Shown here: positions 407-48,131 of the stretch, piece by piece
How the letters are laid out: the number at the start of each line of letters is the position of its first letter
Position numbering within the stretch: the stretch's first letter is position 1
Sequence record: OR589135.1
DNA length: 58,217 nt
Source: Pseudomonas phage UF_RH7
Strand: one strand, 5' to 3'
Program-made: the position numbers and the translations under genes
Notes under the pieces: generated by a model
The model's database searches: none
What the model was told of the DNA's origin: nothing
Seen by the model: only the letters and a program-made list of their open reading frames with translations

Positions 407-2992
407 TCAAAGATCGTCATCGACGTCTTCGAACGCAGTTTCCTCATTTTTATTGTGCTCAGCGAAGTGCAAACGCACCTTTTCCGGGTCTGGATTTCCG
501 TCTTCCTTCATCCATTTTCTCGGGTCTAACGCGTAAACATAGCCTTCCTCTCCATCCACCCTGACGCGAGACCAGGATTTCGTCCCGACCTTCTTATACC
601 CGAGGTCGGAAAGGCGGCGGTTGATAGCACTGGTACGGCCGATTTCCCGTTCTGGGATAGCATCCACGATGAACTTTTTCAGGTCTGGCAGGAAAATGAG
701 TTCGTTGCTGACGCCGCGAATCTTCCCGCTGTACGTCGCCTCTTTAATCGACCGCGTGATGTCGTCCACTGCGTAGTCGATCATGTAGTCGCGAGCTGCA
801 GTATCCCGCGGAGCCTGGCCGGCGTCGTGGGCAAACCCTTCGCTGAACTCCCATTCCGAAAACCACTTACGCAAAGCCCCAGGGTAGCGGCGGAACGCGG
901 CATCCATGCGACGGAAGAAGTTCGGGTCACTGCGCTTGAAGGCGTTCAACACTTCGGTATTCGTGAAGTAGGATTCGACGATCAGCCACCGACGGTCTTC
1001 GTTGTCGATCGGCAGCGCCGCCGGGTCGTTGGTGAAGGCGATATATGACGCGGTGTTCCTGATCTCGAAGGAGTCCACGCCTTTCCTTTCGCACGGAATG
1101 AATGGGTTCGTGATCTTGTCCTTCAGGTCGTTTATGACGTCATATTTGTGGCGCGGCACGGAGACTTCCTCGAGCACCTTGACCAAACCGCCTTCAGTCC
1201 ACCCGGTGAACTTACCCTGGAAAATCTTGTTGTTCACGACGTCGACGTTTGTGTGGCCAAGCAAGCATTTCAGCATCGAGGCGATGATCGATTTACCGGA
1301 GCCTTGCGTGCCGCGGATGACCAGAGCGTAGTCTACGCGCCGGCCGGGGTTTGCGATGACCCAGGCCAGCCAGTCCATGACATAGCGGCGCTCCTTGTCG
1401 TCCGGGAACTGGACGAAGAAGAAGTCCTTGAGCGTGTTGATCGCTTTCAGTTCCTGCTTCGAGTAGGACTCAGGCATCTTAGCCAGGGTATCCGGGTTGA
1501 AGGTGTTCAGGAACGTCCGTCCCAGCTCGTCTTTGAACAAGTCGGTGCCAGGCAGGCGCCAGTGACGCTTCCATTCGTTGTTCGGCAGGTCGCCGTGATG
1601 CAGCGGGTCATAGCGCTGGCCATCCACAACCGGAACCGGGAATATTTTCGTGGCCAGATCCACCGGCAACGCGCCGCCCTCTTTGTCGGAGGAAACGAAA
1701 CGCTGGTTTGCCATGTTGAAAGCGCCCGGCAAAACCTCGATGGCGTTATTCCGGTTGACGAACGCGCCGGCAACCTGGTCCAGGACCCACGGCTTCAGCC
1801 ACTCCGGCAGATCGTCGGAGTTCGGGCGGTAGTCCAGATAAGATTTCGCCTCGGCTTTATCCAGCGGGCGGTTGAATATGCGTTTGAACGCCTCAATGGC
1901 CACCGCGCGCACGTCGTTTCGAGCGACGCCGAAAATTGCCTCGCGTTTCAGGCGGTCAGCGGCTTCCAGCCATTCTTTTTTGGACGTGGCCATGTCGAAA
2001 AGCGGCATAAGCTCTTCTGCAACAACGGCCGCCTGCTCTTTTTCGATCTCGCGGGCTTGTTTTATGAACGTAGCCAGGGTGATCAGGCTATCGCCATCGT
2101 GGTGGAAGCCCTTCTGCCACTTGTCTTCGAAGGCGTCCATGTCGAAATTGAAGGCCTGCGCCGACCATTTCAGGGCAATATCGTAGGCTAAATCCTGATT
2201 TTCAACGCTTATTTGCAGCGCCGCAATCATCTCAATCCAGGTCTGGTAGTCCTCATACCCCGGAATGAGCATGACCAAACGCTCCAGTTCTTCGTCAGAA
2301 CCTTCCCATTTGCGCACCAGATCAGCGTCTGACAGGCCAAAAGCGTCATCATCGCCGATGCTGGTGGCCGCCGGCCGCGATTTTTTGGCCTTCAGCTTTC
2401 TCACCCAACCCGCTTCCTCTGCCATCTGGTCGAAGGCATCGCAAATGGCGCGCGCATCCTCCGGCGTCAGCGTTGGAAGTTCATCGACCGCCGTGTTCGT
2501 CGGGTCTTTTCCGTCAACCCACCAATACGGCTCGTCGGTGTCCGGGTGAATGCCGAAAGCCACCAGCTGCTGGCCATCGCCGAGGATTTCTACCTTGCTG
2601 GCGTGCCCGCTTGGCGAAGTCCAGGTGCCGGAGGTAATTTTGGTGAACGGTTCATCGGTTCTGAACAGCATCAACCGCTTCGGCGCCATGCCGAAACGAA
2701 CCGGCGCCATGCCGTAGTCGAACTCTACCAGCTCCTGAACCGCAGAAGCCATGGCGTCGTCGTAAACGTCAATATCAACAGCCGGGGTATAGGCGGTATT
2801 CAGGCCTGCGCCGCCATTTTTGAACTCTTTTTCCCAGCGTTTCGCCAGTTTTGAGTCCGCTTGATAGGTCGTCCATTCGTCAAATGGCGGCCGTTTTGTC
2901 TTGAATCGCAGAGGCAGAAAGTTATAGCCGTTCTCTAAAAGGTCGGGCCATACCTCTGCCAGTTTGGTTTTGTGCAGATTATCGTCCATCAC
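407..2992 (-). CDS. Bifunctional primase-polymerase (Prim-Pol N-terminus) / SF3 helicase (P4-alpha / D5-like); C-terminal acidic tail ...DVDDDL.
   Basis: 861 aa. N-terminal Prim-Pol-like region (LPLRFKTKRPPFDEW). Walker A RGTQGSGKS. P4/D5-family helicase core. SD-like gtggggcgg upstream of the ATG. Confidence 0.8.
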   Translation of the reverse strand: MMDDNLHKTKLAEVWPDLLENGYNFLPLRFKTKRPPFDEWTTYQADSKLAKRWEKEFKNGGAGLNTAYTPAVDIDVYDDAMASAVQELVEFDYGMAPVRFGMAPKRLMLFRTDEPFTKITSGTWTSPSGHASKVEILGDGQQLVAFGIHPDTDEPYWWVDGKDPTNTAVDELPTLTPEDARAICDAFDQMAEEAGWVRKLKAKKSRPAATSIGDDDAFGLSDADLVRKWEGSDEELERLVMLIPGYEDYQTWIEMIAALQISVENQDLAYDIALKWSAQAFNFDMDAFEDKWQKGFHHDGDSLITLATFIKQAREIEKEQAAVVAEELMPLFDMATSKKEWLEAADRLKREAIFGVARNDVRAVAIEAFKRIFNRPLDKAEAKSYLDYRPNSDDLPEWLKPWVLDQVAGAFVNRNNAIEVLPGAFNMANQRFVSSDKEGGALPVDLATKIFPVPVVDGQRYDPLHHGDLPNNEWKRHWRLPGTDLFKDELGRTFLNTFNPDTLAKMPESYSKQELKAINTLKDFFFVQFPDDKERRYVMDWLAWVIANPGRRVDYALVIRGTQGSGKSIIASMLKCLLGHTNVDVVNNKIFQGKFTGWTEGGLVKVLEEVSVPRHKYDVINDLKDKITNPFIPCERKGVDSFEIRNTASYIAFTNDPAALPIDNEDRRWLIVESYFTNTEVLNAFKRSDPNFFRRMDAAFRRYPGALRKWFSEWEFSEGFAHDAGQAPRDTAARDYMIDYAVDDITRSIKEATYSGKIRGVSNELIFLPDLKKFIVDAIPEREIGRTSAINRRLSDLGYKKVGTKSWSRVRVDGEEGYVYALDPRKWMKEDGNPDPEKVRLHFAEHNKNEETAFEDVDDDL

Positions 2993-3001
2993 CGCCCCAC
3001 T

Positions 3002-3472: not shown

Positions 3473-3856
3473 ATGTCTGAAGTTACCGTTAAAATCGAAA
3501 TTGTAGGCCTGGCTGACCTGATCGGCGCACTGAACACCCACACCCAGGCTCTGGCCGGCGGTGCTGCACCGACCGAAACCAAAACCACCAGCACCAAAAC
3601 GACTCCGGCCAAGGAAACCAAGCCGAAAGTCACCAAACCTAAAGCCTCCAAAGCTGAAGTGAGCACCGCCCTGGGCGAAGTGAAAGCGGCCTTCGGCATC
3701 GACGCTGCTCGCGAAATCATGTCCGAAAACGGCGGCTTCGCTAAAATGGCGGACATCACTCCTGAGCACTACGATGCTATCGTTGCTGCCTGTGCTGCAA
3801 AAATCGCGGAAAACGATGACGGCGCCGGCACCGAAGAAGAAGGCGACGGTCTGTAA
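3473..3856 (+). CDS. Hypothetical protein with Lys/Thr/Pro-rich linker and acidic C-terminal tail ...EEEGDGL.
   Basis: 127 aa. Strong SD (ggagaag) before the ATG. Low-complexity TETKTTSTKTTPAKETKPKVTKPK linker. Confidence 0.6.
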   Translation: MSEVTVKIEIVGLADLIGALNTHTQALAGGAAPTETKTTSTKTTPAKETKPKVTKPKASKAEVSTALGEVKAAFGIDAAREIMSENGGFAKMADITPEHYDAIVAACAAKIAENDDGAGTEEEGDGL

Positions 3857-3906: not shown

Positions 3907-3907
3907 T

Positions 3908-5227
3908 TTGTTCCAGAAGGGGGTAGTCTTGACCGAGCATAAGCTAGACCTGGATAAACTTGTAGCCGATCGAAACGGCCATTCCGTTTTCGGGCCATCC
4001 GGCAGTGCTATGTGGTCGACCTGCGCCGGCTCGCTTATCCCCAACTTGCTCGCTCCTGATGAAACGTCGTTCGAAGCCGCCGAAGGCACCGTGGCGCACG
4101 CCATAGCTGAGGAATGGCTGAAAACAGGCATCAAGCCCAAGCACCACCTGGGCACGACGCAAATAGTCGAAGAAAACGGCCTAAGATTCGAAATTGTGAT
4201 CGACGTCATAATGTTCGATTACATCAAATCGTATGTCGACTGGGTTCGCTTCCTTCCCGGTCAGCATTATGTCGAAAGGCGGGTCGATTTTTCCCGGCTT
4301 ATGCCGATACCGAAGCAAACGGGTACTGCCGATTTCATCGCGCTGGAGCACGGCAAGATGTGGATCAGAGACCTGAAATACGGCGCTGGCGTATACGTTG
4401 AGGTCGAAAACAACACCCAGGCGCTGCTGTATGCCCTCGGGGCGTTCTACGAATACGATGAAATCTATGATATTCAAGAGATTGACATCGGAATCGGCCA
4501 GCCTCGAATGGATAATTTCAGCACCTGGACCATTTCACGCGAAGAATTGCTGTCATGGGAACCGTATTTCAGGGAAACTGCAGCAGCGGCATGGAAAGTC
4601 AACGCGCCGCGCCATCCTTCAGTGAAGGGTTGCCGGTGGTGCAAGGTCAAAGCGACCTGCGGCGCCCAGGCTAAACTTCAGGAAGAGCTGGCAACGTTGG
4701 CGTTTGACGACCTGGCGGAAGACAAAACGGAACAGGACATCGAAGCGTTGAAAAACAGGATTACGGACGACCTTGAGCCGTATAAACTGGAGTTCGTCTC
4801 TCCGAGTGACCTTACCGTGGAGCAGATGGCCATCCTCGTACCGTATCGCCGCCTGGCGGAAATGTGGTGGAAGTCAATCGAGGATGAACTGGAAAAACGC
4901 CTGCAGGAAGGGGCGAAAGTGCCAGGCTATAAACTTGTCGATGGGCGAAAGTCGCGAGACTTCATCAACGAGAAAAAGGCAGCAGAGGAATTGGAGTGGC
5001 TAGGCCTCGAACCGGGTGAGATTTTTGAGCGTAAAATGATCTCGCCGGCGGAAGCTGAAAAACGTCTTCGCAAAAAGGGGTATCGCATGGCTGACATGCC
5101 GTCCCTTCTGAAAAAGATCGTTTATGCCAAGCCAGGGAAGCCAACGATGGCACCCGAAAGCGACAAAAGGGAAGCAGTGCAAGACATGGCCGGTGACGCG
5201 TTCGAAAGTATGGACGACGACCTGTAG
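3908..5227 (+). CDS. PD-(D/E)XK Cas4/RecB-like nuclease (DUF2800-like) with C-terminal Cys cluster; acidic tail ...SMDDDL.
   Basis: 439 aa as listed in the ORF track, which uses a TTG start at 3908. The real start is probably TTG at 3929 with SD aaggggg, because 3908 lies inside the upstream hairpin. CRWCKVKATC Cys motif. Paired with a gp2.5-like SSB as in DUF2800/DUF2815 modules. Confidence 0.6.
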   Translation: MFQKGVVLTEHKLDLDKLVADRNGHSVFGPSGSAMWSTCAGSLIPNLLAPDETSFEAAEGTVAHAIAEEWLKTGIKPKHHLGTTQIVEENGLRFEIVIDVIMFDYIKSYVDWVRFLPGQHYVERRVDFSRLMPIPKQTGTADFIALEHGKMWIRDLKYGAGVYVEVENNTQALLYALGAFYEYDEIYDIQEIDIGIGQPRMDNFSTWTISREELLSWEPYFRETAAAAWKVNAPRHPSVKGCRWCKVKATCGAQAKLQEELATLAFDDLAEDKTEQDIEALKNRITDDLEPYKLEFVSPSDLTVEQMAILVPYRRLAEMWWKSIEDELEKRLQEGAKVPGYKLVDGRKSRDFINEKKAAEELEWLGLEPGEIFERKMISPAEAEKRLRKKGYRMADMPSLLKKIVYAKPGKPTMAPESDKREAVQDMAGDAFESMDDDL

Positions 5228-5280: not shown

Positions 5281-5880
5281 ATGGCTTTAGAAGTCGCTAA
5301 GAAAGTAAAAAACGCCGTTCTGTACACCAACGGCTGCATTCGCATCGACGGCGTTCGCGCTTCGTTCCCTCACCTGGATAAGCCATACGCAGGTGAAGAC
5401 GGCGGCACACCGGCTTACGGTTTGGTGAGCCTGCTGGACAAAACCACTCACAAAGAGGCGAAAGATCTCATTGTTGAGCGGATTAACGAAGTCCTGGCGC
5501 AGAACAAAAATGCGAAAGTTGCTGCTGATCGCAAATTCATCCGCAACGGCGACGACTCTGCCCGCGATGAAGAGAACGGCCATTGGACAGTATCCGCGCG
5601 CGAAACCAAGCGCCCTAGCATCCGCGATAAGGATAAGTCGGTGCTGTCACCTGAAGAAGCCCTGGATAAGATCTACGGTGGCTGCTTCGTAAACGTGCTT
5701 ATCCGTCCGTGGTTCCAGGATAATAAGTACGGCAAGCGCGTTAACGCAGGTCTGGTAGCGGTTCAGTTCCTCCGAGACGGCGAGGCCTTCGGTGAAGGTC
5801 GCATCGACGACGAAGAGGCGTGGGATGATGTCGACGACGGAAATGAAGGCTTCACCGACGATGATGAAGACGGCCTGTAA
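5281..5880 (+). CDS. T7 gp2.5-like single-stranded DNA-binding protein (DUF2815-like) with acidic C-terminal tail ...DDDEDGL.
   Basis: 199 aa. Pattern similarity to T7 gp2.5 (YGLVSLLDK...LIVERINE; GCFVNVLIRPWFQ...VNAGLVAVQFL). Acidic tail as in gp2.5, but the terminal residue is Leu instead of Phe. Confidence 0.65.
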   Translation: MALEVAKKVKNAVLYTNGCIRIDGVRASFPHLDKPYAGEDGGTPAYGLVSLLDKTTHKEAKDLIVERINEVLAQNKNAKVAADRKFIRNGDDSARDEENGHWTVSARETKRPSIRDKDKSVLSPEEALDKIYGGCFVNVLIRPWFQDNKYGKRVNAGLVAVQFLRDGEAFGEGRIDDEEAWDDVDDGNEGFTDDDEDGL

Positions 5881-8108: not shown

Positions 8109-8378
8109 ATGACTATCAGAGAATCAAAGGTCGAAAGCGATATTCGGAAATATGCGGAAAAACGCGGCTGGTGGCAGTGCAAGTTCACGTCTCCAAGCCT
8201 GCGCGGCGTGCCAGATCGGATATTTATTCGAGCAGGCAGACACGTTTTCATCGAGGTGAAGAGACCCGGCAAAAAGGCAACAGCTCAGCAGAAAAAGCGC
8301 CACGTTGACATGCGTGAAAAAGGTGCTGAAGTTTACGTCATCGACTGCGTGGAGGATGCATATGCGATACTCGAGTGA
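8109..8378 (+). CDS. VRR-NUC domain nuclease.
   Basis: ATG at 8109, 2 nt after the polymerase stop. Motif RGVPDRIFIRAGRHVFIEVKRPGKK (PD-(D/E)XK, VRR-NUC-like). The ORF-track start at 8022 lies inside the polymerase gene. Confidence 0.7.
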   Translation: MTIRESKVESDIRKYAEKRGWWQCKFTSPSLRGVPDRIFIRAGRHVFIEVKRPGKKATAQQKKRHVDMREKGAEVYVIDCVEDAYAILE

Positions 8379-9876
8379 CCTTTACGAGACAATCCGGCGC
8401 CGGTTCGCTGGTGTTGAGCTGCAGGAAAATCAGCTACACCTCTATCAGGAGGACGCGATAGACTTCCTCGATACGAACCGTTATAGCGCGCTGTTCATTG
8501 ACATGGGCTTGGGGAAAACGATCATCTCCCTGACGCTGGCGTCCCGGCTTTTGAACGACTTCAAGGCCAACAGAGTCCTGGTCATAGCACCACTCCGCGT
8601 GGCCAATACCACCTGGCCGAACGAAATACGCTTGTGGGAACACACGGCTGGGTTCGATTTCACGGTGCTGACCGGCAGCGCTGAAGAGCGAATGACCGCG
8701 CTCAAGGAAGGCATGCACCGCAACTGCCCGATATTCATCATCAATCGCGAGCAGATCGAATGGCTGGCCGACATCTACGGCAACAAATGGCCGTTCGACA
8801 CCGTGTTTGTCGATGAAAGCTCGTCGCTGAAGGATCACACGACAAAACGTTTTAACGCGCTGAAAAACGTGCGCCGGTACATCCGCCGTTTGCACGAACT
8901 CACCGCGACGCCGGCGGCCGAGACATACTTGCACCTCTTCGCCCAAATTTACCTCCTGGATCAGGGAAAGCGCCTTGGCAAAGACATGCGTAATTTCACT
9001 GATAAATATTTCACATACAATCATTACAATCGCAAGTATAAGCTCCGCCCCGGCGCCGAAGAGGAAATCGTCAACCTGATTTCCGACATTTGCCTCGTCA
9101 TGAAGCGAGAAGACTACCTGGAATTCCAGCAGCCGATCTTCCACAACGTGATGATCGACATGTCGGCTAAGCAGCAGGCGCTATACAAAACGATGGCAAC
9201 CGAGTTCATCGTCGAACTGGATAACGGCGTTGAGGTCGAAGCAGAAACCGCCGCCGCTCTATCGAGCAAGCTGCTGCAGATGGCCTCCGGCGTCCTTTAC
9301 GATACCGTCGATCTGGAAGACGCCACCACCGGCGACGTAAAGCAGTTGAAAAAAGTCTACGAGCTGCACCGGCATAAAATTGACGAACTGGAGCGAATTT
9401 ACGAAGAGGCGAACGGCGAACCGATCCTGGTATCCTACCACTTCAAATCGTCACTCGACCGGCTGAAGAAGGCCTTCCCGAAAGCGGTGGCGATGGACAG
9501 AGAAGGCAAGGCTGTCGCGCAGTGGAACAAGAAGAAAATCCCGATGCTCCTGGTCCACCCGCAGAGCGCCGGGCACGGCCTTAACCTCCAAAAGGGAGGC
9601 CATCACATCGTGTTCTACGACATCCCATGGTCGCTGGAGCTGTACCTGCAGCTGATAGGCCGACTCGACCGCCAGGGGCAGCAGCACCCGGTAATTGTCC
9701 AGCACCTGATTTGCAGAGGCACGGTCGATAACCTGGTTATTGCAGCGCTGATGAAGAAAAACGATGCGCAGGATGCGCTGTTCAGGATGCTGAAGCGCGC
9801 GAGAGCCAAACTGAAGAAAGACCGTGCGGCCAAAGTCGACCTGGCCACCGAGGCGTTTGACGACGACGATCTGTGA
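8362..9876 (+). CDS. SNF2/SWI2-family helicase (SF2 ATPase); acidic tail ...AFDDDDL.
   Basis: Walker A DMGLGKT. DEAH-like VFVDESS. Helicase C motifs (QSAGHGLNLQ). Start chosen at ATG 8362 (GGAGG 6 nt upstream), overlapping the VRR-NUC end. Confidence 0.8.
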   Translation: MRYSSDLYETIRRRFAGVELQENQLHLYQEDAIDFLDTNRYSALFIDMGLGKTIISLTLASRLLNDFKANRVLVIAPLRVANTTWPNEIRLWEHTAGFDFTVLTGSAEERMTALKEGMHRNCPIFIINREQIEWLADIYGNKWPFDTVFVDESSSLKDHTTKRFNALKNVRRYIRRLHELTATPAAETYLHLFAQIYLLDQGKRLGKDMRNFTDKYFTYNHYNRKYKLRPGAEEEIVNLISDICLVMKREDYLEFQQPIFHNVMIDMSAKQQALYKTMATEFIVELDNGVEVEAETAAALSSKLLQMASGVLYDTVDLEDATTGDVKQLKKVYELHRHKIDELERIYEEANGEPILVSYHFKSSLDRLKKAFPKAVAMDREGKAVAQWNKKKIPMLLVHPQSAGHGLNLQKGGHHIVFYDIPWSLELYLQLIGRLDRQGQQHPVIVQHLICRGTVDNLVIAALMKKNDAQDALFRMLKRARAKLKKDRAAKVDLATEAFDDDDL

Positions 9877-10029: not shown

Positions 10030-10275
10030 ATGAGGACGCCTGCAGTGAACCAAACCCTGACCCAGTTCGAAGACCACATCGCCATGGGGCCAACATTCGC
10101 AGCGCGTTTGCTGGGGGTCGCCTACGCCACTTACGCCCAATACCGGAGCGGCCACCGCCGATTGCAGAAATACCACCAGCGCCACATCCAAGCGCTGATG
10201 CTGCTGAGCGACGAAGACCTGCAGAACTTAATAACGGAGCATATCCACAATGACCCAGGCAAAAAAGCCAGCTAA
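10030..10275 (+). CDS. Small hypothetical protein upstream of the terminase (possible DNA-binding protein).
   Basis: ORF 9982-10275, likely ATG at 10015 or 10030. Overlaps the small terminase start. Confidence 0.35.
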   Translation: MRTPAVNQTLTQFEDHIAMGPTFAARLLGVAYATYAQYRSGHRRLQKYHQRHIQALMLLSDEDLQNLITEHIHNDPGKKAS

Positions 10276-10825
10276 AAACAGCCTCGACGAAACGAGTTCC
10301 TCGATGCTTTATCAGGGCTGCAATTTATCGCAGCTCGGCATCTTGTTCCGCCGAGACCACCGAACTATTGTTGAGCGCATCCACGGCATAAAGCCGGCCG
10401 GCACGCGCGGCGGCCATAGCATTTATCAGGTTCACGAAGTTGCGCCGTACCTGGCCGACATTCCGCCGGACATCATTGAAGACCGCATCACGCGCATGCA
10501 CCACAATGAGCTGCCGAAGATGTTGACGAAAGAGTTCTGGGCCGGTCAGCGGAGCAAGCAGCTCTTCCAGCTGGAGGCCGGCGACCTTTGGCCGACCAGC
10601 AAGATCATCGATAAAGTCGGCGAGGCGTTCAAAACCTGTAAGATGTCGATCATGCTGCTGAGCGACGCGGTTGAGCGCGAGACCGAATTCACCGATCGGC
10701 AGCGCGAAAAGCTACGAGAATTAATTGACGGGACGCTCACCGATTTACACAAGTCGTTGGTTGAGCGCTTAACAGCGGACGATGGAGACGACAATGGCGA
10801 AAGTGACGAAGACGAAGACCTTTAA
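10250..10825 (+). CDS. Terminase small subunit, lambda Nu1-like (N-terminal wHTH); acidic tail ...SDEDEDL.
   Basis: 191 aa. Position immediately upstream of the gpA-like large terminase. N-terminal pattern resembles Nu1. Confidence 0.55.
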   Translation: MTQAKKPAKNSLDETSSSMLYQGCNLSQLGILFRRDHRTIVERIHGIKPAGTRGGHSIYQVHEVAPYLADIPPDIIEDRITRMHHNELPKMLTKEFWAGQRSKQLFQLEAGDLWPTSKIIDKVGEAFKTCKMSIMLLSDAVERETEFTDRQREKLRELIDGTLTDLHKSLVERLTADDGDDNGESDEDEDL

Positions 10826-12904: not shown

Positions 12905-13135
12905 ATGACGCCAGAAACCTGCCGGTCTTTACTGGAGGACGCCCGGAAAGCGTACCACAACCTTGTTACCGGGCAGATGGCGCGCGTCGTCGTCGATAAG
13001 GACGGTTCTCGGGTTGAATTTACAGCGGCCAACAAAGAGGCGCTCTACAACTACATCCTCCGCCTCGAAGCGATCTGCGGTTGTGGCGGTGCTGGCTCTA
13101 TGTCGCCAGGCGGTCCAGCGGGGTTCCTGTTCTGA
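12905..13135 (+). CDS. Head-tail joining protein, lambda gpW-like.
   Basis: 76 aa. RVEFTAANKE and C-terminal GPAGFLF versus gpW RVEFTATS and GPAGFYV. Confidence 0.8.
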   Translation: MTPETCRSLLEDARKAYHNLVTGQMARVVVDKDGSRVEFTAANKEALYNYILRLEAICGCGGAGSMSPGGPAGFLF

Positions 13136-17643: not shown

Positions 17644-17901
17644 ATGCCAAAACGTATTGCGGTACACACCCTGGTTCTCACCCGCGACGGTAAACGTGTG
17701 AACGTTAAGCCGGGCACCCTGGTTGACCTGACTGCAGAAGAAGTGAAAGAGCTGAACGCCCTGAACGCGATCCGCCTGCCAGTCAACGAAACCGGCGCGC
17801 CGGAAGACGAAGCGCCAAAGGCAGAAGATAAGAAGTCCGAGGACAAAGCGCCGAAGACTGACGATAAGAAAGCCGGCGCCAAGAAGGAAGAAGACCTGTA
17901 A
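17644..17901 (+). CDS. Small protein in the lambda FI position; acidic Lys/Glu-rich tail ending ...KKEEDL.
   Basis: 85 aa. Sits between the MCP and the FII-like gene. Confidence 0.5.
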   Translation: MPKRIAVHTLVLTRDGKRVNVKPGTLVDLTAEEVKELNALNAIRLPVNETGAPEDEAPKAEDKKSEDKAPKTDDKKAGAKKEEDL

Positions 17902-20234: not shown

Positions 20235-20681
20235 ATGGGACTGATGGACTATCAGCCGCCAAGTGAAGAAGTCAAGTTTAAAGGGGGGTCCTTCGAATTG
20301 AAGGGCCTTTCTACTCAGGACTTCTCATTGTTGCTGGCGCGGCATTCAGTAGACCTGGAAAAGGTCTTCGATTTGTACGAGAAAGGCGGAGAAGACGGGA
20401 CAGACTTCACTGCCGCAGGACTGGCCAAGTTTGTCATGACGCTGATAAACGACGCTCCCGGATTGGTGGCCAACGCCATCGCGTTATCCGCCGGCGAACC
20501 GAAAGCGGCAGATCATGTCATGAAAACTTTCGGTATCGCGCTGCAGCTGCAGTGCTTAAAAATCGTGGGCCGGCTAACCTTTGAGGAAGCGGGCGGCGTA
20601 AAAAAGTTCGTCGAAAGCCTTCGGGAGATCTACGGGAACGTCCAGATCCCAGGGAAGAACTCAAACGAGCTGGGCGAGTAG
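20235..20681 (+). CDS. Tail assembly chaperone (gpG analogue).
   Basis: 148 aa. Contains slippery heptamer A_AAA_AAG at 20600-20606. Confidence 0.7.
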   Translation: MGLMDYQPPSEEVKFKGGSFELKGLSTQDFSLLLARHSVDLEKVFDLYEKGGEDGTDFTAAGLAKFVMTLINDAPGLVANAIALSAGEPKAADHVMKTFGIALQLQCLKIVGRLTFEEAGGVKKFVESLREIYGNVQIPGKNSNELGE

Positions 20682-38549: not shown

Positions 38550-39157
38550 TCCCCGCCCCCTTGATAGCTGTCATCGTGCAGCCCGGACTGCTGGCGCTCG
38601 ATGATGATGTGATCCAGGCGGTCGGTCATCGCTTTGTTCTTCAGCGCGCGCCAGTGGGATACCATGGCTGACTTCTCACTACAGGTCACCCACTGTTCCC
38701 AGTGGAAGGACTCCTGACGCCCGGACTGGAAGAAGCGTTTCTCACGCCGGTATTTCTTGCCTTCCAGCTCCACGGTATACATGGGGTGCATCTTCCCTTC
38801 GGTGCCGCGCCAGCCGGTTACCGTTACGATGACCGGGTGGAACTCTTCAGTCAGCGTCTCCGGGTGGAGTATCGGCCGCTCGATCTTGGCCAAGTGGGCG
38901 ACGACCTCATTGTCATACGGCGACACCCGGCGCAGAGAGTAGCCGACCTCTGCCTTTCCGCGCAGCGTGAACGAGGAGTGCTCCACCCATTTGCGTTTAC
39001 GGATGCAGAAGTGACTGCATACGGCACGCGTCTTCGTGATGCGTGTAATTCTCAGGACCAGGTACATGGTGCCGAACGCGCATGGCCCGAAGAACATCAG
39101 GTCGCCGATCTTCGGTTCGCCATGGGCGTCCCAGCGTTTCTGGAAATCTCCGATCAT
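38546..39157 (-). CDS. Hypothetical protein.
   Basis: About 203 aa from ATG 39157 (ATGA overlap with the upstream gene). The ORF extends to 39193. Confidence 0.45.
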   Translation of the reverse strand: MIGDFQKRWDAHGEPKIGDLMFFGPCAFGTMYLVLRITRITKTRAVCSHFCIRKRKWVEHSSFTLRGKAEVGYSLRRVSPYDNEVVAHLAKIERPILHPETLTEEFHPVIVTVTGWRGTEGKMHPMYTVELEGKKYRREKRFFQSGRQESFHWEQWVTCSEKSAMVSHWRALKNKAMTDRLDHIIIERQQSGLHDDSYQGGGE

Positions 39158-39366
39158 AATTCGGTATCCTCTAAAAAGTTGATTAACCCGCATTCACGGC
39201 ACACCACTTCTCGCGGCAGGCCGTTCCAGTAACTGCTGATAACCTCGCAGTTGTAGTGGCTGCAGGCTTCCTGGCGGCGCTGCTCCGCCTCCCGCTCTGC
39301 GTAGTCCAGCGCCTCTTGCTGCCGGCGGCGCTCCTGCCGCATTCTCTGGCTATTGCTCATGGCCAT
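39154..39366 (-). CDS. Small Cys-pair (zinc-ribbon-like) protein.
   Basis: 70 aa. CSHYNC...CRECG. Confidence 0.4.
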   Translation of the reverse strand: MAMSNSQRMRQERRRQQEALDYAEREAEQRRQEACSHYNCEVISSYWNGLPREVVCRECGLINFLEDTEL

Positions 39367-39787
39367 CGTCAGACCCCCAGTCTACGAAGGCACAGCCGTC
39401 CTCCGTTCTGACTTCTGCCGTGCGGCTGCACGCAGGACATTGAACTTCGTCACCTTCGAACAGCAGGAAGGCGTTTCCTTTCGTCGTAAAGGCGTGCAAA
39501 ACACCAAATCCGCAGCTCTTGCATGGCCCGAGCCAGCTAAGCTTGAATTCGTCACGCCGAGGTTCCGGCAGCGGTGCCCATTTGATAGGGGCGATTTGGC
39601 TGGTGCAGAAGGTATCTTTGTTCCCGCACCACTCCCGCCACCTGCCGTCGACAAACCGACATTCGACCCAGGCATTCCCGTTGCGAACCATACCGTTAAC
39701 CGAACGGTCGTATTCGAAGGTGTGGGTCAGGATCAGCACGCAGGTGCCATCAGTTGGCGCGGCGGCCATGTCTTGAACGTTGCTCAT
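39350..39787 (-). CDS. Hypothetical Cys-rich protein.
   Basis: 145 aa. CPACSRT, CKSCGFG motifs. Confidence 0.4.
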   Translation of the reverse strand: MSNVQDMAAAPTDGTCVLILTHTFEYDRSVNGMVRNGNAWVECRFVDGRWREWCGNKDTFCTSQIAPIKWAPLPEPRRDEFKLSWLGPCKSCGFGVLHAFTTKGNAFLLFEGDEVQCPACSRTAEVRTEDGCAFVDWGSDDGHEQ

Positions 39788-39966
39788 AGCTCTTCATCCT
39801 CTTGCCAGTCATTGACCTCATAACCGGCTTCATATGCTTTACGGTAGCCCTGAAAATCAATCGGCTCTACGAGCTGACCGGATTCCAGGATTTCATCGAC
39901 ACGCGCTTCGTCGTGCTCTTTCCATGCGCATTCGCTTTCATGGTGTATCAGGTAGAACGTGGCCAT
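39784..39966 (-). CDS. 60-aa protein with acidic C-terminal tail ...DWQEDEEL (likely true product of ORF 39784-40140 from its internal ATG).
   Basis: ATG at 39966-39964 is coupled to the upstream zinc-ribbon gene via TAATG. Confidence 0.45.
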   Translation of the reverse strand: MATFYLIHHESECAWKEHDEARVDEILESGQLVEPIDFQGYRKAYEAGYEVNDWQEDEEL

Positions 39967-40172
39967 TACGCGTACCCCGAGCCTATGCCGTTTCCATGCC
40001 GACGGTGGCCGACGTGGAATTTCATGCAGAATGGGCACTGGTAGACGTGCAGCTGACCCTGGTGCCCGCGGCTCCTGACGAGCGATATGATCGCCCGCGC
40101 CGCCTTCTCTGCGGTTTCGTGTTTTATCTTCCCTTCGCACGTTCGCCGGCGAAGTCGTCTTTTGCTGGCCAT
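39966..40172 (-). CDS. Zinc-ribbon small protein (…YQCPFCMKFHVGHRRHG).
   Basis: 68 aa. Basic N-terminus, C-terminal CxxC. Confidence 0.45.
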   Translation of the reverse strand: MASKRRLRRRTCEGKIKHETAEKAARAIISLVRSRGHQGQLHVYQCPFCMKFHVGHRRHGNGIGSGYA

Positions 40173-40181: not shown

Positions 40182-40889
40182 CTACAGCAGATTCGAATCA
40201 TCGAGGATGTGCCACCACTCTGTTCGCTTTTTATGCCCCCATGTCTTTTCTACATGGCGAACGTAGGCGCCGTTGATGTCCTTGGCCTTCTCGATCACCT
40301 GCAGCTCGTTGGCCAGTTGGGCATCGTCGTGGATGTTCGAATACGGCGAGATGACTACCGGGTGATTGAACATCGCCTGCCCGTCGGTGATTCCAGCGTG
40401 TCGGCGCTCCAGCGCGCGCTGAAGGACGAACCGGCGCAGCAGCAGGTGATAATCGTCATACTCCGTCGTCAGGCCGGTGGAGTACGGCGCGACCGAGTAG
40501 ATGACGAACTGCAGCTGATCTATCGGCCATTCGTCCATCAGGTCGTTCTCGCTCACAGGTTTCCGGCGCGAGCGGAGGATTCCGTCGAAGATGCAGCCGT
40601 CTTCCCAGACGTCCCGGTCATCGGTCTTGCTGATCATCCAGGTATCTACGCAAGACGGCATGCTGTTGGCCATGGCCATCAGGTGCTCGGCGACGGTCGA
40701 TACCGCGTAGTTGTTCACTTCCGGCGCCCGGCCGGCAGTACCGTTCAGCCACATAATGAAATCGTCAATGTCGATATGCGATTTCACGATCGCCTGGGCC
40801 GGCGTGCCGATTAAAGCCGGCATCATGATCGCCGGATACTCCAGACCAGTGCCTTCGAACGGCAGCGGCTCCTGCAGGTTTATCCTCAT
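40182..40889 (-). CDS. Hypothetical protein (235 aa).
   Basis: ORF with overlap-coupled neighbours. No confident domain. Confidence 0.45.
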   Translation of the reverse strand: MRINLQEPLPFEGTGLEYPAIMMPALIGTPAQAIVKSHIDIDDFIMWLNGTAGRAPEVNNYAVSTVAEHLMAMANSMPSCVDTWMISKTDDRDVWEDGCIFDGILRSRRKPVSENDLMDEWPIDQLQFVIYSVAPYSTGLTTEYDDYHLLLRRFVLQRALERRHAGITDGQAMFNHPVVISPYSNIHDDAQLANELQVIEKAKDINGAYVRHVEKTWGHKKRTEWWHILDDSNLL

Positions 40890-41173
40890 GGCAGATTTCC
40901 TTCAGTGGTCAGCAGGCACCCCAGCGCTTCCAGCATGTCGAAATACTTTTTCTTCTGCTGGTGGCACTGCTTGTTGATCTGCTGCACCTGAAGCTCGGTC
41001 ATCCGGTCTTGCTCCTGGCGGCGCGGGACATAAACGGGAACGGTCCTGGACCCGTATTCCGGCACCAGCAACAGACAGATGTTCCTGCTGTGGCGCGACA
41101 TTCCTACCCGGAGCGAGAATTTCATGCCGCTCGGGTAGGTGCTTATCACTTCTTTCAGGCGTTCAGGGGTCAT
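40886..41173 (-). CDS. Hypothetical protein (95 aa).
   Basis: ATGA coupling to neighbours. Confidence 0.35.
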   Translation of the reverse strand: MTPERLKEVISTYPSGMKFSLRVGMSRHSRNICLLLVPEYGSRTVPVYVPRRQEQDRMTELQVQQINKQCHQQKKKYFDMLEALGCLLTTEGNLP

Positions 41174-41361
41174 AGTTCGTCCCTCAAGTGCTCCCAGGTT
41201 TGTTGTTCACCCCGGTGCGCGGGCGTCAGTGTCGCGCCGCATGCCGGGCATTCGCAAAGGAGAACGTCATCGAGCCGGCCGCTCAGGTCGCTGTGCTCCA
41301 GGGCTTTCAGATGACAGGCTTCCACTTCAAAACGGGTATTGCATGACGAGCAGATTTTCAT
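41170..41361 (-). CDS. Small zinc-finger protein (CxxC…CxC…CxxC), ends ...RDEL.
   Basis: 63 aa. Cys pairs. Confidence 0.4.
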   Translation of the reverse strand: MKICSSCNTRFEVEACHLKALEHSDLSGRLDDVLLCECPACGATLTPAHRGEQQTWEHLRDEL

Positions 41362-43555: not shown

Positions 43556-44163
43556 GCTTCGTCTCCCAGGTTCAGGTGGGTGCAGCCTCGCATGCCTTCC
43601 CGGACGATGCGCCATAACACGACGGCCTGATGGCGGGCATCATCGATGCCGATGTGCGGCGTGCCGTCGAATGGGGTGTTGGATCGGAAGCCGGGGAACA
43701 GGGAATTCAGCGTTCTGAAGCACCGGTGACCCCACCATGGCCACGGCGTACCGAGGTCATGTCGTGCATAGGCATTGGCCAGCCATAACGCATCTGCCAG
43801 TTCGTCGTTACTCCACACCTCAACCTGACTGCTATCCACGCCGTGCTTAGCAGAGAGGCGCTCTATCCAGGCGGTCAGTGCAAGCAGAGCTTCTATCTCC
43901 GGGACAGCATTGCGTTGATGATGCGTGATATGCAGGCGCGAAGCGTCACCCTGCCTCATCCACCACAACACGGTTTGCGGGTCGACATGGCCGCCGGAAA
44001 ACGCGCTGTCTATCAGAATATGGCTGTCAAACGTTGAGATGATAAGGTCATGCCGGTTTCCGGCACTAAGGTCGAACGCGACGGCCGAGATAGACAGCAG
44101 GGCAGCATTGGCCTTGGTGCTGAGGCTTTCGCAGTCCAGCATAATTCGCAGCGGGGGAATCAT
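43552..44163 (-). CDS. DEDDh-family 3'-5' exonuclease (DnaQ-like).
   Basis: 203 aa. Exo I MLDCESLS (DxE). Exo III-like HIGIDDARHQAV (H-x4-D). Confidence 0.5.
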   Translation of the reverse strand: MIPPLRIMLDCESLSTKANAALLSISAVAFDLSAGNRHDLIISTFDSHILIDSAFSGGHVDPQTVLWWMRQGDASRLHITHHQRNAVPEIEALLALTAWIERLSAKHGVDSSQVEVWSNDELADALWLANAYARHDLGTPWPWWGHRCFRTLNSLFPGFRSNTPFDGTPHIGIDDARHQAVVLWRIVREGMRGCTHLNLGDEA

Positions 44164-44699
44164 AGTTCATCATCCTCTTCAGGTGCTGGCGCAGCAGCAG
44201 GTTTTACGGCGGGCGGGAATGCCCAGGCATGCAGGTCTGCCAGCAGCTCCATGCCTTCTTTTTCGTCCATCATCGGCAGCGCCAGCAGGCGGCTCTGCAG
44301 CGAATCCGGCAGCTTCGGTTCAACGTTCTCAGCGTCCTTGGCCTTCTGCCATGCGCCTTTCTGCGTTACCGGCGGCTTGACGCTGGCCGGGAATACAGCT
44401 TCGACGCCGTGCAGTGCCGCCTGGGTGGCGAGGTAGTTGAACGACCCTTGGCACTTCTCGGCGGTCTCTTCCAGCAACCACTGCATTTCCTGCAGGTCGC
44501 ACGCCGTGGACTCCAGCAGCTCGTTCTGCAGCATGCCGGTGACCAGGTGGCGGATCGTCGGGTAGAAGCCCACCAGCGCGCGGGTCTCTTCGCCAGGGTT
44601 CTTCGACTCCAGGCCTTTCTCTTTCAGCTGGTGGAGGATGAACTGGTATTTGTCGCTGGTGATGACGTAGGCATCGGCGACGCGGATTTCGATTGACAT
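44160..44699 (-). CDS. Hypothetical protein with acidic tail ...APEEDDEL.
   Basis: 179 aa. Own promoter upstream. Confidence 0.5.
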   Translation of the reverse strand: MSIEIRVADAYVITSDKYQFILHQLKEKGLESKNPGEETRALVGFYPTIRHLVTGMLQNELLESTACDLQEMQWLLEETAEKCQGSFNYLATQAALHGVEAVFPASVKPPVTQKGAWQKAKDAENVEPKLPDSLQSRLLALPMMDEKEGMELLADLHAWAFPPAVKPAAAPAPEEDDEL

Positions 44700-44773: not shown

Positions 44774-44779
44774 TAATTA

Positions 44780-45229: not shown

Positions 45230-45241
45230 TGGTTTTCTCCG

Positions 45242-46765
45242 TTAAAGCTCGTCAGCGGCCAGTTCAGCGTCGAACACGGCGGTCAGGATACGAACGCCGA
45301 TCCAGCGCATCACGTTAACCGCCATGCTGTTTCCCACCGCCTTATAGCGTGACGCGTCAGACGTGTGGCCTTTCTTGTAGGGTATCTTCGTCCAGCCGTC
45401 GGGCATGCCCTGCAGACGCTCGCACTCCACCGGCATCAGGCGCCGAACGGAAAGGTCGCAGTCTTCCTGCCGCACGGCCATGGAAAACACCGCATGGTTT
45501 CCTGCCGTATCAATCGTTGGGCATGGGTCAGTCGGGCGCCCAATGCCAAGACCGTTGGCGCTGCCATCTCCGTTCCGCGTTGGCCCGCCACCTTTGTACC
45601 GGGTGGCCTTGTCATGGATCGGAATGCAGTAGGCGATGCATGGCGCGGCGTCCCCTTTTCCTGTCTCGCCGGCGGTGGCCGTTAACGCGTTCACGATGTC
45701 GCCCATATCCCCGCGGCCATTGCGTGCGATACGCGGCTGGAACGCATGGACGATGGCCGGCGTCTGGCAGCAATTCAGCGCGCCGGAGATGTCATCCAGT
45801 CCGAGCGTCGACGATGTATTGCCGGCCGCCTGGTGGTTGAACGCCAGCACGACGGCCAGGTCAGTAGCGGATTTGTGGTCGCGCGACTGAACCGTGGACG
45901 AGCGCTCGTCATCCTCGTACTTCCCGAACTTCGACAGCCTGAAGGCCTTCTGGCCTATAAGGTGTCCTGCTCGGGCTTGGTTGTCGTCAGCACCACCGAC
46001 TCCAACGCCATTTGAAGTAAGGGCGGCAACGATCTCTCCCGTTTCGCGGCTCGGCTCAAGATCCCTTCGCACGCCGTCGAACTCAAATAATACTTGGGCG
46101 GGATCGATGTCCTTACGAGCACTTGCGACAACGAACACACGTCGGCGTCGTTGGGCCAGTCCGAAATATTGGGCATCGAGGATCCGCCACGCGACTGCCC
46201 TTTGGGGTCCATAGACACAACCAGCGTTTGCCCACTTCGGAACGTGCTTACCGGTTTTCGCGTCCCAGCGCCAATGGGTAGAACTCCGTCCCGATTCAGG
46301 TCGTGGTGATGGTTCGAGTTCATCATCTGCGCCAGCCAGTCCGGCAAGCAGGCATCCGAATGCGTTGGTTTTGTCACTGAGTACCCCCGGTACGTTTTCC
46401 CATACACTGATCACCTCCGGCTTTCCGTCTTCCAGGCGTATGTGATCGATCTCATTGGCCAGTTTGACGTAGGTCAGGGTGAGCTGTCCGCGCGGGTCAT
46501 TCAGGCCTTCGCGCAGACCGGCGATCGAATAGGCCTGACATGGCGTTCCGCCGACAAGGATGGCCGGCGCCGGAATCTCCCGGTTGGCCACCATAAACGG
46601 CAGGCAGGTCATATCGCCGTAGTTCGGCACATCGGGAAACCGTTCGGCCAGGATGGCCGACGGTATTTCCTCGATCTCGCTGAGCCACGCCGCCCGGAAT
46701 CCGAGCGGGTGCCATGCCAAACTGGCAGCTTCGATGCCACTGCATACGCTGCCAAAGTCGATCAT
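45242..46765 (-). CDS. DNA (cytosine-5)-methyltransferase, 507 aa with a long variable region (possibly multispecific).
   Basis: Motif I DFGSVCSGIEA. Motif IV GGTPCQAYSIAG (PCQ). Motif VI ENVPGVLS. ATGA coupling upstream. Confidence 0.85.
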   Translation of the reverse strand: MIDFGSVCSGIEAASLAWHPLGFRAAWLSEIEEIPSAILAERFPDVPNYGDMTCLPFMVANREIPAPAILVGGTPCQAYSIAGLREGLNDPRGQLTLTYVKLANEIDHIRLEDGKPEVISVWENVPGVLSDKTNAFGCLLAGLAGADDELEPSPRPESGRSSTHWRWDAKTGKHVPKWANAGCVYGPQRAVAWRILDAQYFGLAQRRRRVFVVASARKDIDPAQVLFEFDGVRRDLEPSRETGEIVAALTSNGVGVGGADDNQARAGHLIGQKAFRLSKFGKYEDDERSSTVQSRDHKSATDLAVVLAFNHQAAGNTSSTLGLDDISGALNCCQTPAIVHAFQPRIARNGRGDMGDIVNALTATAGETGKGDAAPCIAYCIPIHDKATRYKGGGPTRNGDGSANGLGIGRPTDPCPTIDTAGNHAVFSMAVRQEDCDLSVRRLMPVECERLQGMPDGWTKIPYKKGHTSDASRYKAVGNSMAVNVMRWIGVRILTAVFDAELAADEL

Positions 46766-47061
46766 AAATCGTCTTCCTCTTCGTCGGCGTTGCGGTAAAC
46801 CCGCGTGCCAGGCAGACCGTAGATCTCGTCCTCTTCTACCGCGAGGATGGAAATCTTGATGTTCGCGCTGGCCGCCAGCGGCCGCAGGAATTGCAGTTCC
46901 TTCGGCGCTACGCCTTCAATGAAAAACGATTCGCCCGGCTCTAGGCGCTTCATGCCGTCGCGATAGCGGCGGTTACGCTCGGACATCTGGCGCCCGTTTC
47001 CGGGACGCGATGCTGGGGGCCGGCCGACCCCTTTTTCGATTTTCACGTCCTTCTTGCTCAT
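46762..47061 (-). CDS. Small basic protein with acidic tail ...ADEEEDDL.
   Basis: 99 aa. Overlaps the MTase start. Confidence 0.45.
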   Translation of the reverse strand: MSKKDVKIEKGVGRPPASRPGNGRQMSERNRRYRDGMKRLEPGESFFIEGVAPKELQFLRPLAASANIKISILAVEEDEIYGLPGTRVYRNADEEEDDL

Positions 47062-48131
47062 AGCTCGTCATCCTCCGGGTCGACCTGGTGCTGGCCGAAC
47101 GTGGTTTTCAGGTCAGTGGGGAACGGATCGTCGCCGCACAGCGCCGGGTTGCTGTTCGGGCAACCATCATCGTCTGGTTCTGCGTCCGCTTCGCCGCCCA
47201 TGGCGTCCACGACATCGTTGAGCAGGCTGACCAGCTCGGCCGACACGATCGTGAAGTAGGAGTCAAAACTCTCCCGGCGTTCGTCAGCGTCGCCGCCCCC
47301 GCTCTTCAGGTTCTCGGTCACGATGTCCGGGAACTTGATGCGCTTGAACACGAATTTATCGTTGATAAAGAACTCGCTCTGCACCTCGCCGCGCGTGAAG
47401 TGGCGCAGCTGCACCTCGCGGACAACGTAGTCGTTATCGAGGTAGCTGGTCACCTGCTCGCTGGTCAGGTCTTCGTCCTTCAGGCGCGCGTTACCGCCGT
47501 CGTGGCCGGCCGGCGCATGCAGAGATGCCGCCGTGCCCAGCAGCAGGTTCAGTTCTTCGTCGCCACCGGAGCTGACCAGGCGTGTCAGGACATCGACCGC
47601 CAGCTTGTTGGTGGTGATGGGGGTCACTGGCAAACTGCCGAGCGCGGCGCGCAGTTCGTGCAGGCAATCCTCCGCCACTTTGACGCTGCTGGTCAGCACC
47701 AGGATCAGGTCGTCGATCAGCAGCATGAAGATGGTCTTGCGTTTGATAAACGCGGACTTCAGCAGCGCGGCTTCCGCCAGGTCTTTCAGCTGAGCGTACT
47801 CGTTTTTATAGGCCTTGCGGCCTTCCCGGCGCTCCAGCTCGGCGACGCGCTTACCGACTTCCTCGCGCAGCACCGTGCCCGGCAGGTCACGCAGGTTGAA
47901 CTGCGCCTTGATCAGCGTAGCGCCGCGATAGCCGCGGTAAACGAAACGCTCTTCAGCCGCCCACTCGATCGGCAGCACGATACCGAAGCCGCCGGAGCGC
48001 CAGGCACTGGCCGCCGGGTCTTGGACGTGACGGGCTTCGAGCAGCACTTCCAGCTCGTCTTCGTCCTTCAGCTTCTCGACCGTCTCCGGGTCGGTAATGC
48101 GGTATGCAATGAAATTCTTGAAATCAGCCAT
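47058..48131 (-). CDS. rdgC: RdgC-like recombination-associated protein with an added acidic C-terminal extension ...DPEDDEL.
   Basis: 357 aa. MADFKNFIAYRIT versus E. coli RdgC MLWFKNLMVYRLS. LRAALGSLPVTPIT versus LRKSLGSLPVVPLS. KRIKFPD... versus KRLKFCD... Confidence 0.75.
   Translation of the reverse strand: MADFKNFIAYRITDPETVEKLKDEDELEVLLEARHVQDPAASAWRSGGFGIVLPIEWAAEERFVYRGYRGATLIKAQFNLRDLPGTVLREEVGKRVAELERREGRKAYKNEYAQLKDLAEAALLKSAFIKRKTIFMLLIDDLILVLTSSVKVAEDCLHELRAALGSLPVTPITTNKLAVDVLTRLVSSGGDEELNLLLGTAASLHAPAGHDGGNARLKDEDLTSEQVTSYLDNDYVVREVQLRHFTRGEVQSEFFINDKFVFKRIKFPDIVTENLKSGGGDADERRESFDSYFTIVSAELVSLLNDVVDAMGGEADAEPDDDGCPNSNPALCGDDPFPTDLKTTFGQHQVDPEDDEL

Follow-up and report, generated by a model that had tools for sequence, protein, structure and literature searches.

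An acidic C-terminal tail with a lineage-specific aliphatic tip on DNA-transaction and packaging proteins of Pseudomonas phage UF_RH7 and other Casjensviridae: a candidate docking code

The 58,217 bp sequence analysed here (the window; record OR589135.1) is the complete genome of a siphophage, Pseudomonas phage UF_RH7, in which a number of otherwise unrelated proteins end in the same way, with a run of acidic residues followed by a C-terminal leucine. The genome begins with a primase gene on the minus strand, followed on the plus strand by replication, packaging, head, tail and lysis genes and then, on the minus strand, by a long run of small early genes. DNA identity was 92% to Serratia phage vB_SmaS-Smarc1 (Smarc1) and approximately 81% to Pectobacterium phages MA11 and MA12, which the International Committee on Taxonomy of Viruses (ICTV) places in the family Casjensviridae, genus Newforgelanevirus. 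Core proteins were 40–60% identical to their counterparts in Chivirus, Nazgulvirus and Sharonstreetvirus, and the size (~58 kb), gene order and similarity to classified members place the window in Casjensviridae. No tRNA genes were found in the whole window.

Eleven proteins with this kind of end had been listed in an earlier note on the window, and each of these C-termini was found exactly as listed, at its stop codon. To these we added three more ends in [D/E]L, on a 70-amino-acid (aa) protein, a 63-aa protein and a C5 cytosine DNA methylase (Table 1). With the tail defined as a terminal Leu and at least three Asp or Glu residues in positions -7 to -2, it was present on 14 of the 86 proteins encoded by the open reading frames (ORFs) of the window, compared with 0.26 expected from the occurrence of the same pattern inside these proteins (P ~2e-20). 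Leu was the last residue in 14 of 16 acidic-tailed proteins, against an internal Leu frequency after acidic windows of 0.11 (P ~3e-12). A six-frame ORF control of the window gave 14 Leu among 22 acidic ends; the remaining eight were almost all shadow ORFs, and shadow ORFs with acidic ends terminated in Arg, Gly, Thr or Cys and never in Leu. The tail is thus a position-fixed motif over-represented on unrelated proteins, which is what is generally expected of a shared C-terminal motif. Its reported absence from the DNA polymerase, the structural proteins and the large terminase also held for PolA (the DNA polymerase), the large terminase subunit (TerL), portal, capsid and tail proteins. Mis-called ORF ends, frameshifts and chance were rejected as causes, since the ends are set by stop codons alone and recur in Smarc1 and MA12, and in view of the over-representation statistics.

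Table 1. Proteins of the window with an acidic C-terminal tail, and the corresponding tails in relatives
Protein	Coordinates	Strand	Domain or family	C-terminal tail and gene junction	Ends of orthologues
Primase-helicase, 861 aa	407..2992	-	Prim-Pol + PriCT_2 + DUF5906 (SF3-type helicase region) (Pfam)	..AFEDVDDDL (tail codons 410-430)	FDDVDDDL (MA12), PFDDEDEV (Chi clade), NEGDI (A18P4), AEDDEL (FoX4), AGCGL (Nazgul)
127-aa protein	3473..3856	+	phrog_7721	..EEEGDGL	EEEEDGL, GEEDDV, TEEEDI, GDGEEM
DUF2800 / PD-(D/E)XK exonuclease	3908..5227	+	DUF2800 + PDDEXK_1 (Pfam)	..AFESMDDDL	DDEDDDEV, EDDDDI, LDADEL, TADDGL
gp2.5-like SSB (single-stranded DNA-binding protein)	5281..5880	+	Enc34_ssDNA-bd / DUF2815 (Pfam)	..GFTDDDEDGL, on a disordered stretch of ~30 residues	
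SNF2-family helicase	8305..9876	+	SNF2 (Pfam)	..EAFDDDDL	SDDDEL, EEDDDI, ATAAGL, ADEDDLL; ..VWDDEE without aliphatic tip (Chi clade)
Small terminase subunit (TerS)	10250..10825	+	DUF1441 (Pfam)	..SDEDEDL; gene end overlaps TerL start	
85-aa protein directly 3' of major capsid gene	17644..17901	+	DUF7443 (Pfam), then Lys/Asp/Glu-rich linker	..KKEEDL	AEDEV, DNDEI, GDGDL, SASGL, DADDDL
RdgC homologue, 356 aa	47058..48131	-	RdgC, residues 3-313 (Pfam)	..DPEDDEL, on a C-terminal extension of ~43 aa	DEDDDEV (SEP13), EEDDGEL (FoX4), GEDDGEI (A18P4); none at ATGA junctions
179-aa protein	44160..44699	-	N-terminal DUF5405 / phrog_154 'replication initiation' domain	..PEEDDEL; GAGGAT-N9-ATGA	
C5 cytosine DNA methylase	45242..46765	-	Pfam	..ELAADEL (weak)	..ELEENEL (MA12)
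70-aa protein	39154..39366	-		..FLEDTEL; GAGGAT-N9-ATGA	
99-aa protein (uncertain member)	46762..47061	-	phrog_7200	..DEEEDDL; GAGGAA-N9-ATGA	No tail (SEP13, A18P4, SD-13)
~60-aa protein from internal ATG, 118 aa from first GTG (uncertain member)	39784..40140	-		..WQEDEEL; GAGGAT-N9-ATGA	
63-aa protein (weak, uncertain member)	41170..41361	-		..HLRDEL; ATGA junction	..YLDDHR, tail lost (MA12)

Relatives were collected by a PolA scan of viral contigs, which gave 77 loci (L001 onwards; PolA identity 33–86%, flanks of up to 10 kb) in which the C-termini of orthologues were read from stop codons only. Eight complete genomes were also compared; as a scan of viral contigs with RdgC matched only MA12, complete GenBank genomes served for the comparison of the early region. 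Eight core proteins (the first eight of Table 1) were found to keep the tail down to approximately 30% identity. Across the 77 loci it was kept on the primase, the 127-aa protein, the DUF2800 nuclease, SSB, TerS, the 85-aa protein and, in many clades, the SNF2 helicase, with the preceding linker diverging freely, while PolA (which ends in ..FY[RK]KD), TerL, the Ad1-like protein and the portal never gained one. Structural and lysis proteins were without it apart from the 85-aa head-module protein and the portal of Xanthomonas phage FoX4. Conservation of the tip in related phages is therefore strong and does not depend on the body of the protein.

Individual families behaved in the same manner. 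The last residue of the 120 closest homologues of the SSB was Leu in 104, Ile in 14 and Met in two, and nothing else. TerS orthologues were read in 69 loci and, separately, in 150 family representatives (clustered at 50%, reaching down to ~30% identity), of which 122 ended in Leu, Ile, Val, Met or Phe and 104 in Leu; one among the most distant representatives adjoins the same SNF2/PolA module. Since the RdgC domain stops at residue 313 of 356, the extension of about 40 aa noticed earlier on this protein is real, and TerS, the 85-aa protein and RdgC, whose tails are kept in relatives, proved to be genuine conserved carriers. In four replisome proteins an aromatic residue lies six to nine positions before the tip (AFEDVDDDL, AFESMDDDL, GFTDDDEDGL, EAFDDDDL).

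The last residue was nearly uniform within a genome across unrelated proteins and differed between lineages (tips were counted among six-frame ORFs with acidic ends). Leu was the tip in the genus of the window and in FoX4 (15 of 20 ends in Smarc1, 14 of 16 in MA12, 11 of 14 in FoX4). Val was the tip in the Chi/Klebsiella/Enc34 clade, for instance in 9 of 16 ends of Salmonella Chivirus SEP13 (PFDDEDEV, WDDEDDDEV, DWEDEV, VDDDEV, AEDEV and, on RdgC, DEDDDEV). Ile was the tip in Aeromonas phage A18P4 (11 of 13) and in a large metagenomic clade (..EPI, ..DDDI, ..VDI). Burkholderia phage BcepNazgul has a derived, acid-poor version, with 12 ORFs ending in GL: four unrelated proteins (Nazgul19, a RusA-like resolvase, Nazgul35 and TerS) end identically in DPAAGL, and others are the helicase (ATAAGL), a ParB-like protein (TAEGL) and the 85-aa homologue (SASGL). 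Phe occurred sporadically (L054, TerS of L039-44, the primase of Salmonella phage SD-13_S19, or SD-13). Each genome had 9–15 carriers, including lineage-specific ones such as methyltransferases, a RusA-like resolvase, a ParB-like protein, a DnaD-like protein and the FoX4 portal. Methyltransferases unrelated to that of the window bear the tip of their own genome (GDDDEL in FoX4, QQDEEI in A18P4), as do orthologues of the 85-aa protein. As controls, T7 (NC_001604) had acidic Phe-ending tails on gp2.5 and gp4 only, and a streptococcal prophage that has the same PolA/DUF2815 module was without a shared tail.

On a PolA tree the Val clade and at least two or three Ile lineages were nested in a Leu background, which means several switches of the tip, each of them shared by many proteins at once. 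As far as can be read from the sequences, the general rule is an acidic run with an aliphatic last residue, and the Leu-terminal tip emphasised in the earlier note is specific to the genus of the window rather than defining.

The tails are short and repetitive (runs of GAY/GAR), and identical hexapeptides occur inside one genome, as might be seen if the 3' ends of genes had been copied from gene to gene by recombination or gene conversion. The four DPAAGL coding ends nevertheless carry 4–6 synonymous differences, three different stop codons and unrelated flanks, and Val tips are coded by GTT, GTG or GTC and Ile tips by ATC, ATA or ATT; it is thus the peptides that agree, and no copied piece of DNA is involved. 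The tails of orthologues, moreover, have been retained through long divergence. Copying of 3' ends by gene conversion was rejected on the synonymous differences, and we give it almost no credence.

We consider it fairly probable that these ends represent one C-terminal short linear motif, borne by DNA-transaction and packaging proteins that would all dock into one co-evolving receptor pocket. A pocket reading the motif is suggested by the over-representation, by conservation in orthologues with drifting linkers and by the concerted change of tip across unrelated proteins, which itself points to a single shared and co-evolving receptor; concerted switches are not what would follow from auto-inhibitory tails acting independently, from junction signals, from gene conversion or from chance. 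The motif would consist of a disordered run of three to eight Asp or Glu residues (Gly being tolerated) followed by an aliphatic residue with its free carboxylate, and the receptor, co-evolving with it, would offer a basic rim together with a small hydrophobic pocket to take up the last side chain and the carboxylate. Docking would concentrate the carriers on replicating and recombining phage DNA and hand them over to packaging. The carriers all act on phage DNA, the exception in kind being the small protein whose gene follows the capsid gene.

The idea of a phage-wide docking code was already contained in the earlier note. It gained from the conservation and from the covariation of the tip (Leu, Val, Ile, AAGL) and lost its Leu tip as a general feature, and a hub linking replication, recombination and packaging, partly supported, would be the best reading of the data. 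In its fullest form, on which our judgement is evenly balanced, the proposal is of a genome-wide address label in Casjensviridae and FoX4-like relatives: an acidic run with an aliphatic tip of lineage-specific, co-evolving identity, by which a single receptor other than the polymerase would bring together primase, nuclease, SSB, helicase, RdgC, DNA-modifying enzymes, TerS and a head-module protein in a single DNA factory physically coupling replication, recombination, modification and packaging.

Auto-inhibitory acidic tails are known from T7 gp2.5, T4 gp32 and HMGB1. If each tail here were a DNA mimic that folds onto the DNA-binding surface of its own protein and so raises its specificity, no shared receptor would be needed, and the carriers are all DNA-binding or DNA-processing proteins. 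Outlying relatives (L057, L077) have acidic tails without a tip (..EEEDDDA, ..LLDDD), and the SSB of phage Enc34 without its tail binds double-stranded as well as single-stranded DNA (PMC5686142). Independent tails of this kind would not be expected, however, to share the same last residue on 9–15 unrelated proteins of a genome, to switch in concert to Val, Ile or AAGL between lineages, to arrive at DPAAGL four times with different codons, or to keep an aliphatic last residue in 120 of 120 SSB homologues, and we regard this explanation as improbable. Targeting of the carriers to the capsid was also considered and judged unlikely; the portion searched of the proteomics text on the related phage AchV4 mentions only structural proteins, among them the protein encoded directly after the capsid gene, which is a positional analogue only of the 85-aa protein.

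As to the identity of the receptor, the tails of T7 gp2.5 and gp4 reportedly bind gp5/thioredoxin (work of the Richardson laboratory), and a T7-like docking onto basic patches of the phage DNA polymerase was implied in the earlier note. As in T7, the SSB and the primase-helicase are tailed, and the polymerase itself is tail-less with its conserved FY[RK]KD end. FoX4, however, keeps 11 Leu tails on the same proteins with a non-homologous polymerase: its gp10 (L087:7349-9397) had no similarity to PolA of the window (BLASTP E = 0.25) and is a family-B polymerase, with matches in the Protein Data Bank to PolB1 (1s5j), Pol alpha and Pol II and assignment to phrog_1252 rather than phrog_17. Terminase, head-module, portal and methylase carriers would be hard to place on a polymerase, and no PolA column tracked the tip. 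A T7-style polymerase dock is therefore disfavoured, above all by FoX4, and we hold it to be very unlikely. The family-B polymerase of FoX4 occupies the slot of the Casjensviridae family-A enzyme in an otherwise syntenic replication module, and the AchV4 paper also lists a PolB at the corresponding position.

The receptor could also be a host protein, for example if the tails mimic the tip of bacterial SSB (DDDIPF) and engage a host pocket for that tip, or another host hub. The motif resembles the SSB tip in its acidic run, hydrophobic last residue and free carboxylate. Phages of Enterobacterales, Aeromonas, Xanthomonas and Burkholderia have different tips, and the only tail-less phage proteins common to all eight complete genomes are a VRR-NUC protein, TerL and structural proteins. 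Phages of one host genus nonetheless have different tips (uniformly Val in SEP13, a mixture of Leu, Ile, Met and Phe in SD-13), and the core replication proteins of Serratia/Pectobacterium, whose phages have Leu, and Salmonella/Klebsiella, whose phages have Val, are near-identical. IPF is never used, and the clamp motif QLxLF is absent. A host receptor thus appears unlikely to us.

The phage's own gp2.5-like SSB is our preferred candidate, tentatively, with the concave β-sheet groove as the putative receptor site. In this arrangement the tails of SSB molecules would chain SSB to SSB, and the other carriers would plug into the same site with an SSB-type tail, which would bring them to DNA coated with SSB. 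All genomes that bear the code encode the SSB, FoX4 with its swapped polymerase included. Crystallised Enc34 ORF6 has its C-terminal segment in the concave, seven-stranded sheet of a neighbouring molecule, burying 842 A2; two other DUF2815 crystals and T7 gp2.5 have the tail in the same place, and the authors propose tail-mediated chaining of SSB on single-stranded DNA (PMC5686142). The universal non-structural proteins without a tail across the eight genomes are the VRR-NUC protein and TerL only; TerL as receptor seems improbable.

TerL (window 10782-12887) and its orthologues in L001-L079 have a C-terminal motif of their own, distinct from the acidic code, in which an aromatic residue is followed by ..[LF][AG]xx[LM][AG]-COOH (YDFAKLAETLA, YSFEKLAMALA, FNFAEFGRKMG) and which could serve as a second docking peptide, with the portal or some other protein as its partner. 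The TerL ORFs of L046 and L068 (1056 and 1078 aa) have an N-terminal extension of ~425–475 aa relative to the 701-aa protein of the window. The Ad1-like 76-aa protein (window 12905-13135) has a G-P-x-G-F-x-F C-terminus in nearly all relatives.

Several observations weigh against a single receptor, or against the SSB in that role. An AlphaFold2 model of the window SSB, built on a 120-sequence alignment, left the tail undocked, with a predicted local distance difference test (pLDDT) score of 50–63 for residues 170–199 and above 90 for the body. The last 11 residues, tip included, are disordered in the Enc34 crystal (PMC5686142), which therefore supports a tail-accepting groove and not recognition of the tip. 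It is not obvious why TerS and a head-module protein should bind SSB. When clade consensus sequences of 12 families, including SSB, PolA, TerL and portal, were screened, no column tracked the tip class above control, with little power at ~4 independent switches, and a search for Nazgul-specific loss of conserved Lys or Arg likewise gave no signal above control; these screens are uninformative because there were only ~4 independent tip switches. Some lineages are mixed or eroded, such as L014 (Val, Leu, Ile, Leu) and SD-13 (Lavrentievavirus), with the four tips given above and a TerS without a tail, so that a pocket would have to tolerate several aliphatic residues. Finally, six minus-strand tails (those of the 70-aa, ~60-aa, 63-aa, 179-aa and 99-aa proteins and RdgC) coincide with a Shine-Dalgarno/ATGA junction.

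These six, of which four were among the original eleven, read GAGGAx-GAn-GAn-YTA-TGA, with the Shine-Dalgarno sequence nine bases before an ATG that overlaps the stop codon. The tails could on this basis be a by-product of gene junctions and no protein feature at all, the in-frame GAGGA encoding Glu-Asp/Glu and YTA building the ATGA overlap. Shine-Dalgarno-like strings also shape other C-termini in the operon (..TGAKS, ..TEGNLP), and the tail is missing from 99-aa homologues outside the genus and from the 63-aa homologue in MA12, while a homologue of the ~60-aa protein was detected only in Smarc1. Seven other tails (primase, 127-aa, DUF2800, SSB, SNF2, TerS, 85-aa) use different codons, GAC/GAT...CTG/CTT, mostly with no start nearby: the stop of the 85-aa protein overlaps the next ATG, and each of the remaining six is followed by a terminator, as in the primase-helicase, or by 40–120 nt without a start codon. 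The 21 ATGA junctions of the window had Leu as last residue in only seven (Lys and Arg in three each, Ser and Ala in two each, Thr, Glu, Pro and Gly in one each), and the junction therefore does not force Leu. In SEP13, FoX4, A18P4 and Nazgul the tails of RdgC, the 85-aa protein and TerS are still present, encoded by other codons and away from any gene overlap, and genome-specific Val, Ile and AAGL tips are beyond the reach of a DNA signal. As a general cause the junction was rejected, and we rate it as highly improbable; the translational-coupling signal is real for the codon pattern of the six minus-strand tails, where it co-determines the acidic residues.

Among the minor carriers, the tails of the 179-aa and 70-aa proteins are kept in Smarc1 and MA12, and no orthologue of the former was found outside the genus. 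The 99-aa, 63-aa and ~60-aa proteins are listed as uncertain members because their tails are poorly supported beyond close relatives. Gene calls in the small-gene block (window 39784-40172; Smarc1/L001 40517-40905) are uncertain: in the GenBank record of Smarc1 no coding sequence ends at the ..WQEDEEL stop, and an overlapping ORF in another frame is annotated instead (40699-40905).

A second kind of tail, with Trp and acidic residues and no aliphatic tip (..VWDDEE, ..IWDDEDD, ..GIWDD, ..QEVWDD), was seen in place of the standard one on some proteins in some clades: SNF2 of L003-L012, L045, L058 and L064, DUF2800 of L069, L029 and SD-13 (L093/L094), and the primase of L069. In L010, L013 and L020 two variants occur per genome, ..DHGL on primase and TerS and ..DDDL on DUF2800 and SSB, which hints at sub-classes of the code or two receptor sub-sites. 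Elsewhere in the window, two ORFs (148 aa and 54 aa; 20235-20947) preceding the tape-measure gene correspond to the programmed-frameshift 'pre-tape measure' pair annotated in Smarc1, the usual tail-chaperone frameshift. G+C content falls to 0.47 at ~52000-54000 (0.55–0.61 elsewhere), in a block of small plus-strand genes. The host label may be worth checking, as the phage is named a Pseudomonas phage in NCBI and its nearest relatives are phages of Serratia and Pectobacterium.

The tail may offer a handle on the hub that would organise a widespread family of phages, the model phage Chi among them, and gives what was a vague analogy the form of a system open to sharp tests. It could give a simple sequence rule to flag hypothetical proteins that work on DNA in these phages, and a testable route to the coupling of replication, recombination and packaging in phages that package concatemers. 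The Leu, Val, Ile and AAGL codes amount to a natural co-evolution experiment on the drift of peptide-pocket specificity. If the proposed reading is true, these phages would have a viral equivalent of the clamp/PIP-box or SSB-tip hubs in which the topology is inverted and the receptor is not the polymerase.

A closely comparable case is Enc34 ORF6, a direct homologue of the window SSB from the same phage family, after which the Pfam family is named and whose tail is WDEDEV. The paper treats the tail as a property of the SSB only, and the same tail on other phage proteins is unmentioned (PMC5686142). No description of a tail shared across proteins of Casjensviridae or of DUF2815/DUF2800 phages was found in the open literature. 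The T7 tails (..ADEDGDF and ..DWSNDTDF) resemble those of the window in being disordered, acidic and C-terminal with a hydrophobic last residue, in having an aromatic residue upstream of the tip and in residing on a gp2.5-type SSB and a primase-helicase. In T7 the hydrophobic last residue is essential. T7 has two carriers, compared with 9–15 per genome here, where TerS, a head-module protein, RdgC, methyltransferases and one portal are included; its tip is Phe, whereas here it is aliphatic (Leu, Val, Ile or GL, occasionally Met) and Phe is only sporadic; and the genome-wide covariation of the tip is unlike T7, as is the receptor, which is probably not the polymerase.

The bacterial SSB tip (..DDDIPF) is likewise a generic docking peptide made of an acidic run and a hydrophobic last residue with a free carboxylate, used by many proteins of DNA metabolism. 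There, one tailed protein serves many pocketed partners; here the arrangement is inverted, with many tailed proteins, and none of the tails of the window or its relatives ends in IPF. Sliding clamps (T4 gp45 with gp43, gp33 and gp55; PCNA with PIP boxes; the β-clamp with QLxLF) are hubs where many clients of different function, such as polymerase partners, nucleases, helicases and methyltransferases, use one short motif that is often C-terminal, and the T4 clamp couples replication to late functions. The tails here differ in being acidic and without Gln or an internal Leu/Phe pattern (QL[SD]LF and QxxLxL are not matched), and, unlike the clients of clamps, their bearers count a packaging subunit among them; no gene for a clamp was recognised in the window. 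Docking of replication proteins by an acidic tail with a hydrophobic terminal residue is thus an established principle from T7 and bacterial SSB, but to our knowledge such tails have so far been a property of one or two proteins. What is new is the number of carriers per genome, the packaging/head-module, RdgC and DNA-modifying proteins among them, the aliphatic tip, the topology inverted relative to the bacterial SSB hub, the genome-wide covariation of the tip and the indication against the polymerase as receptor.

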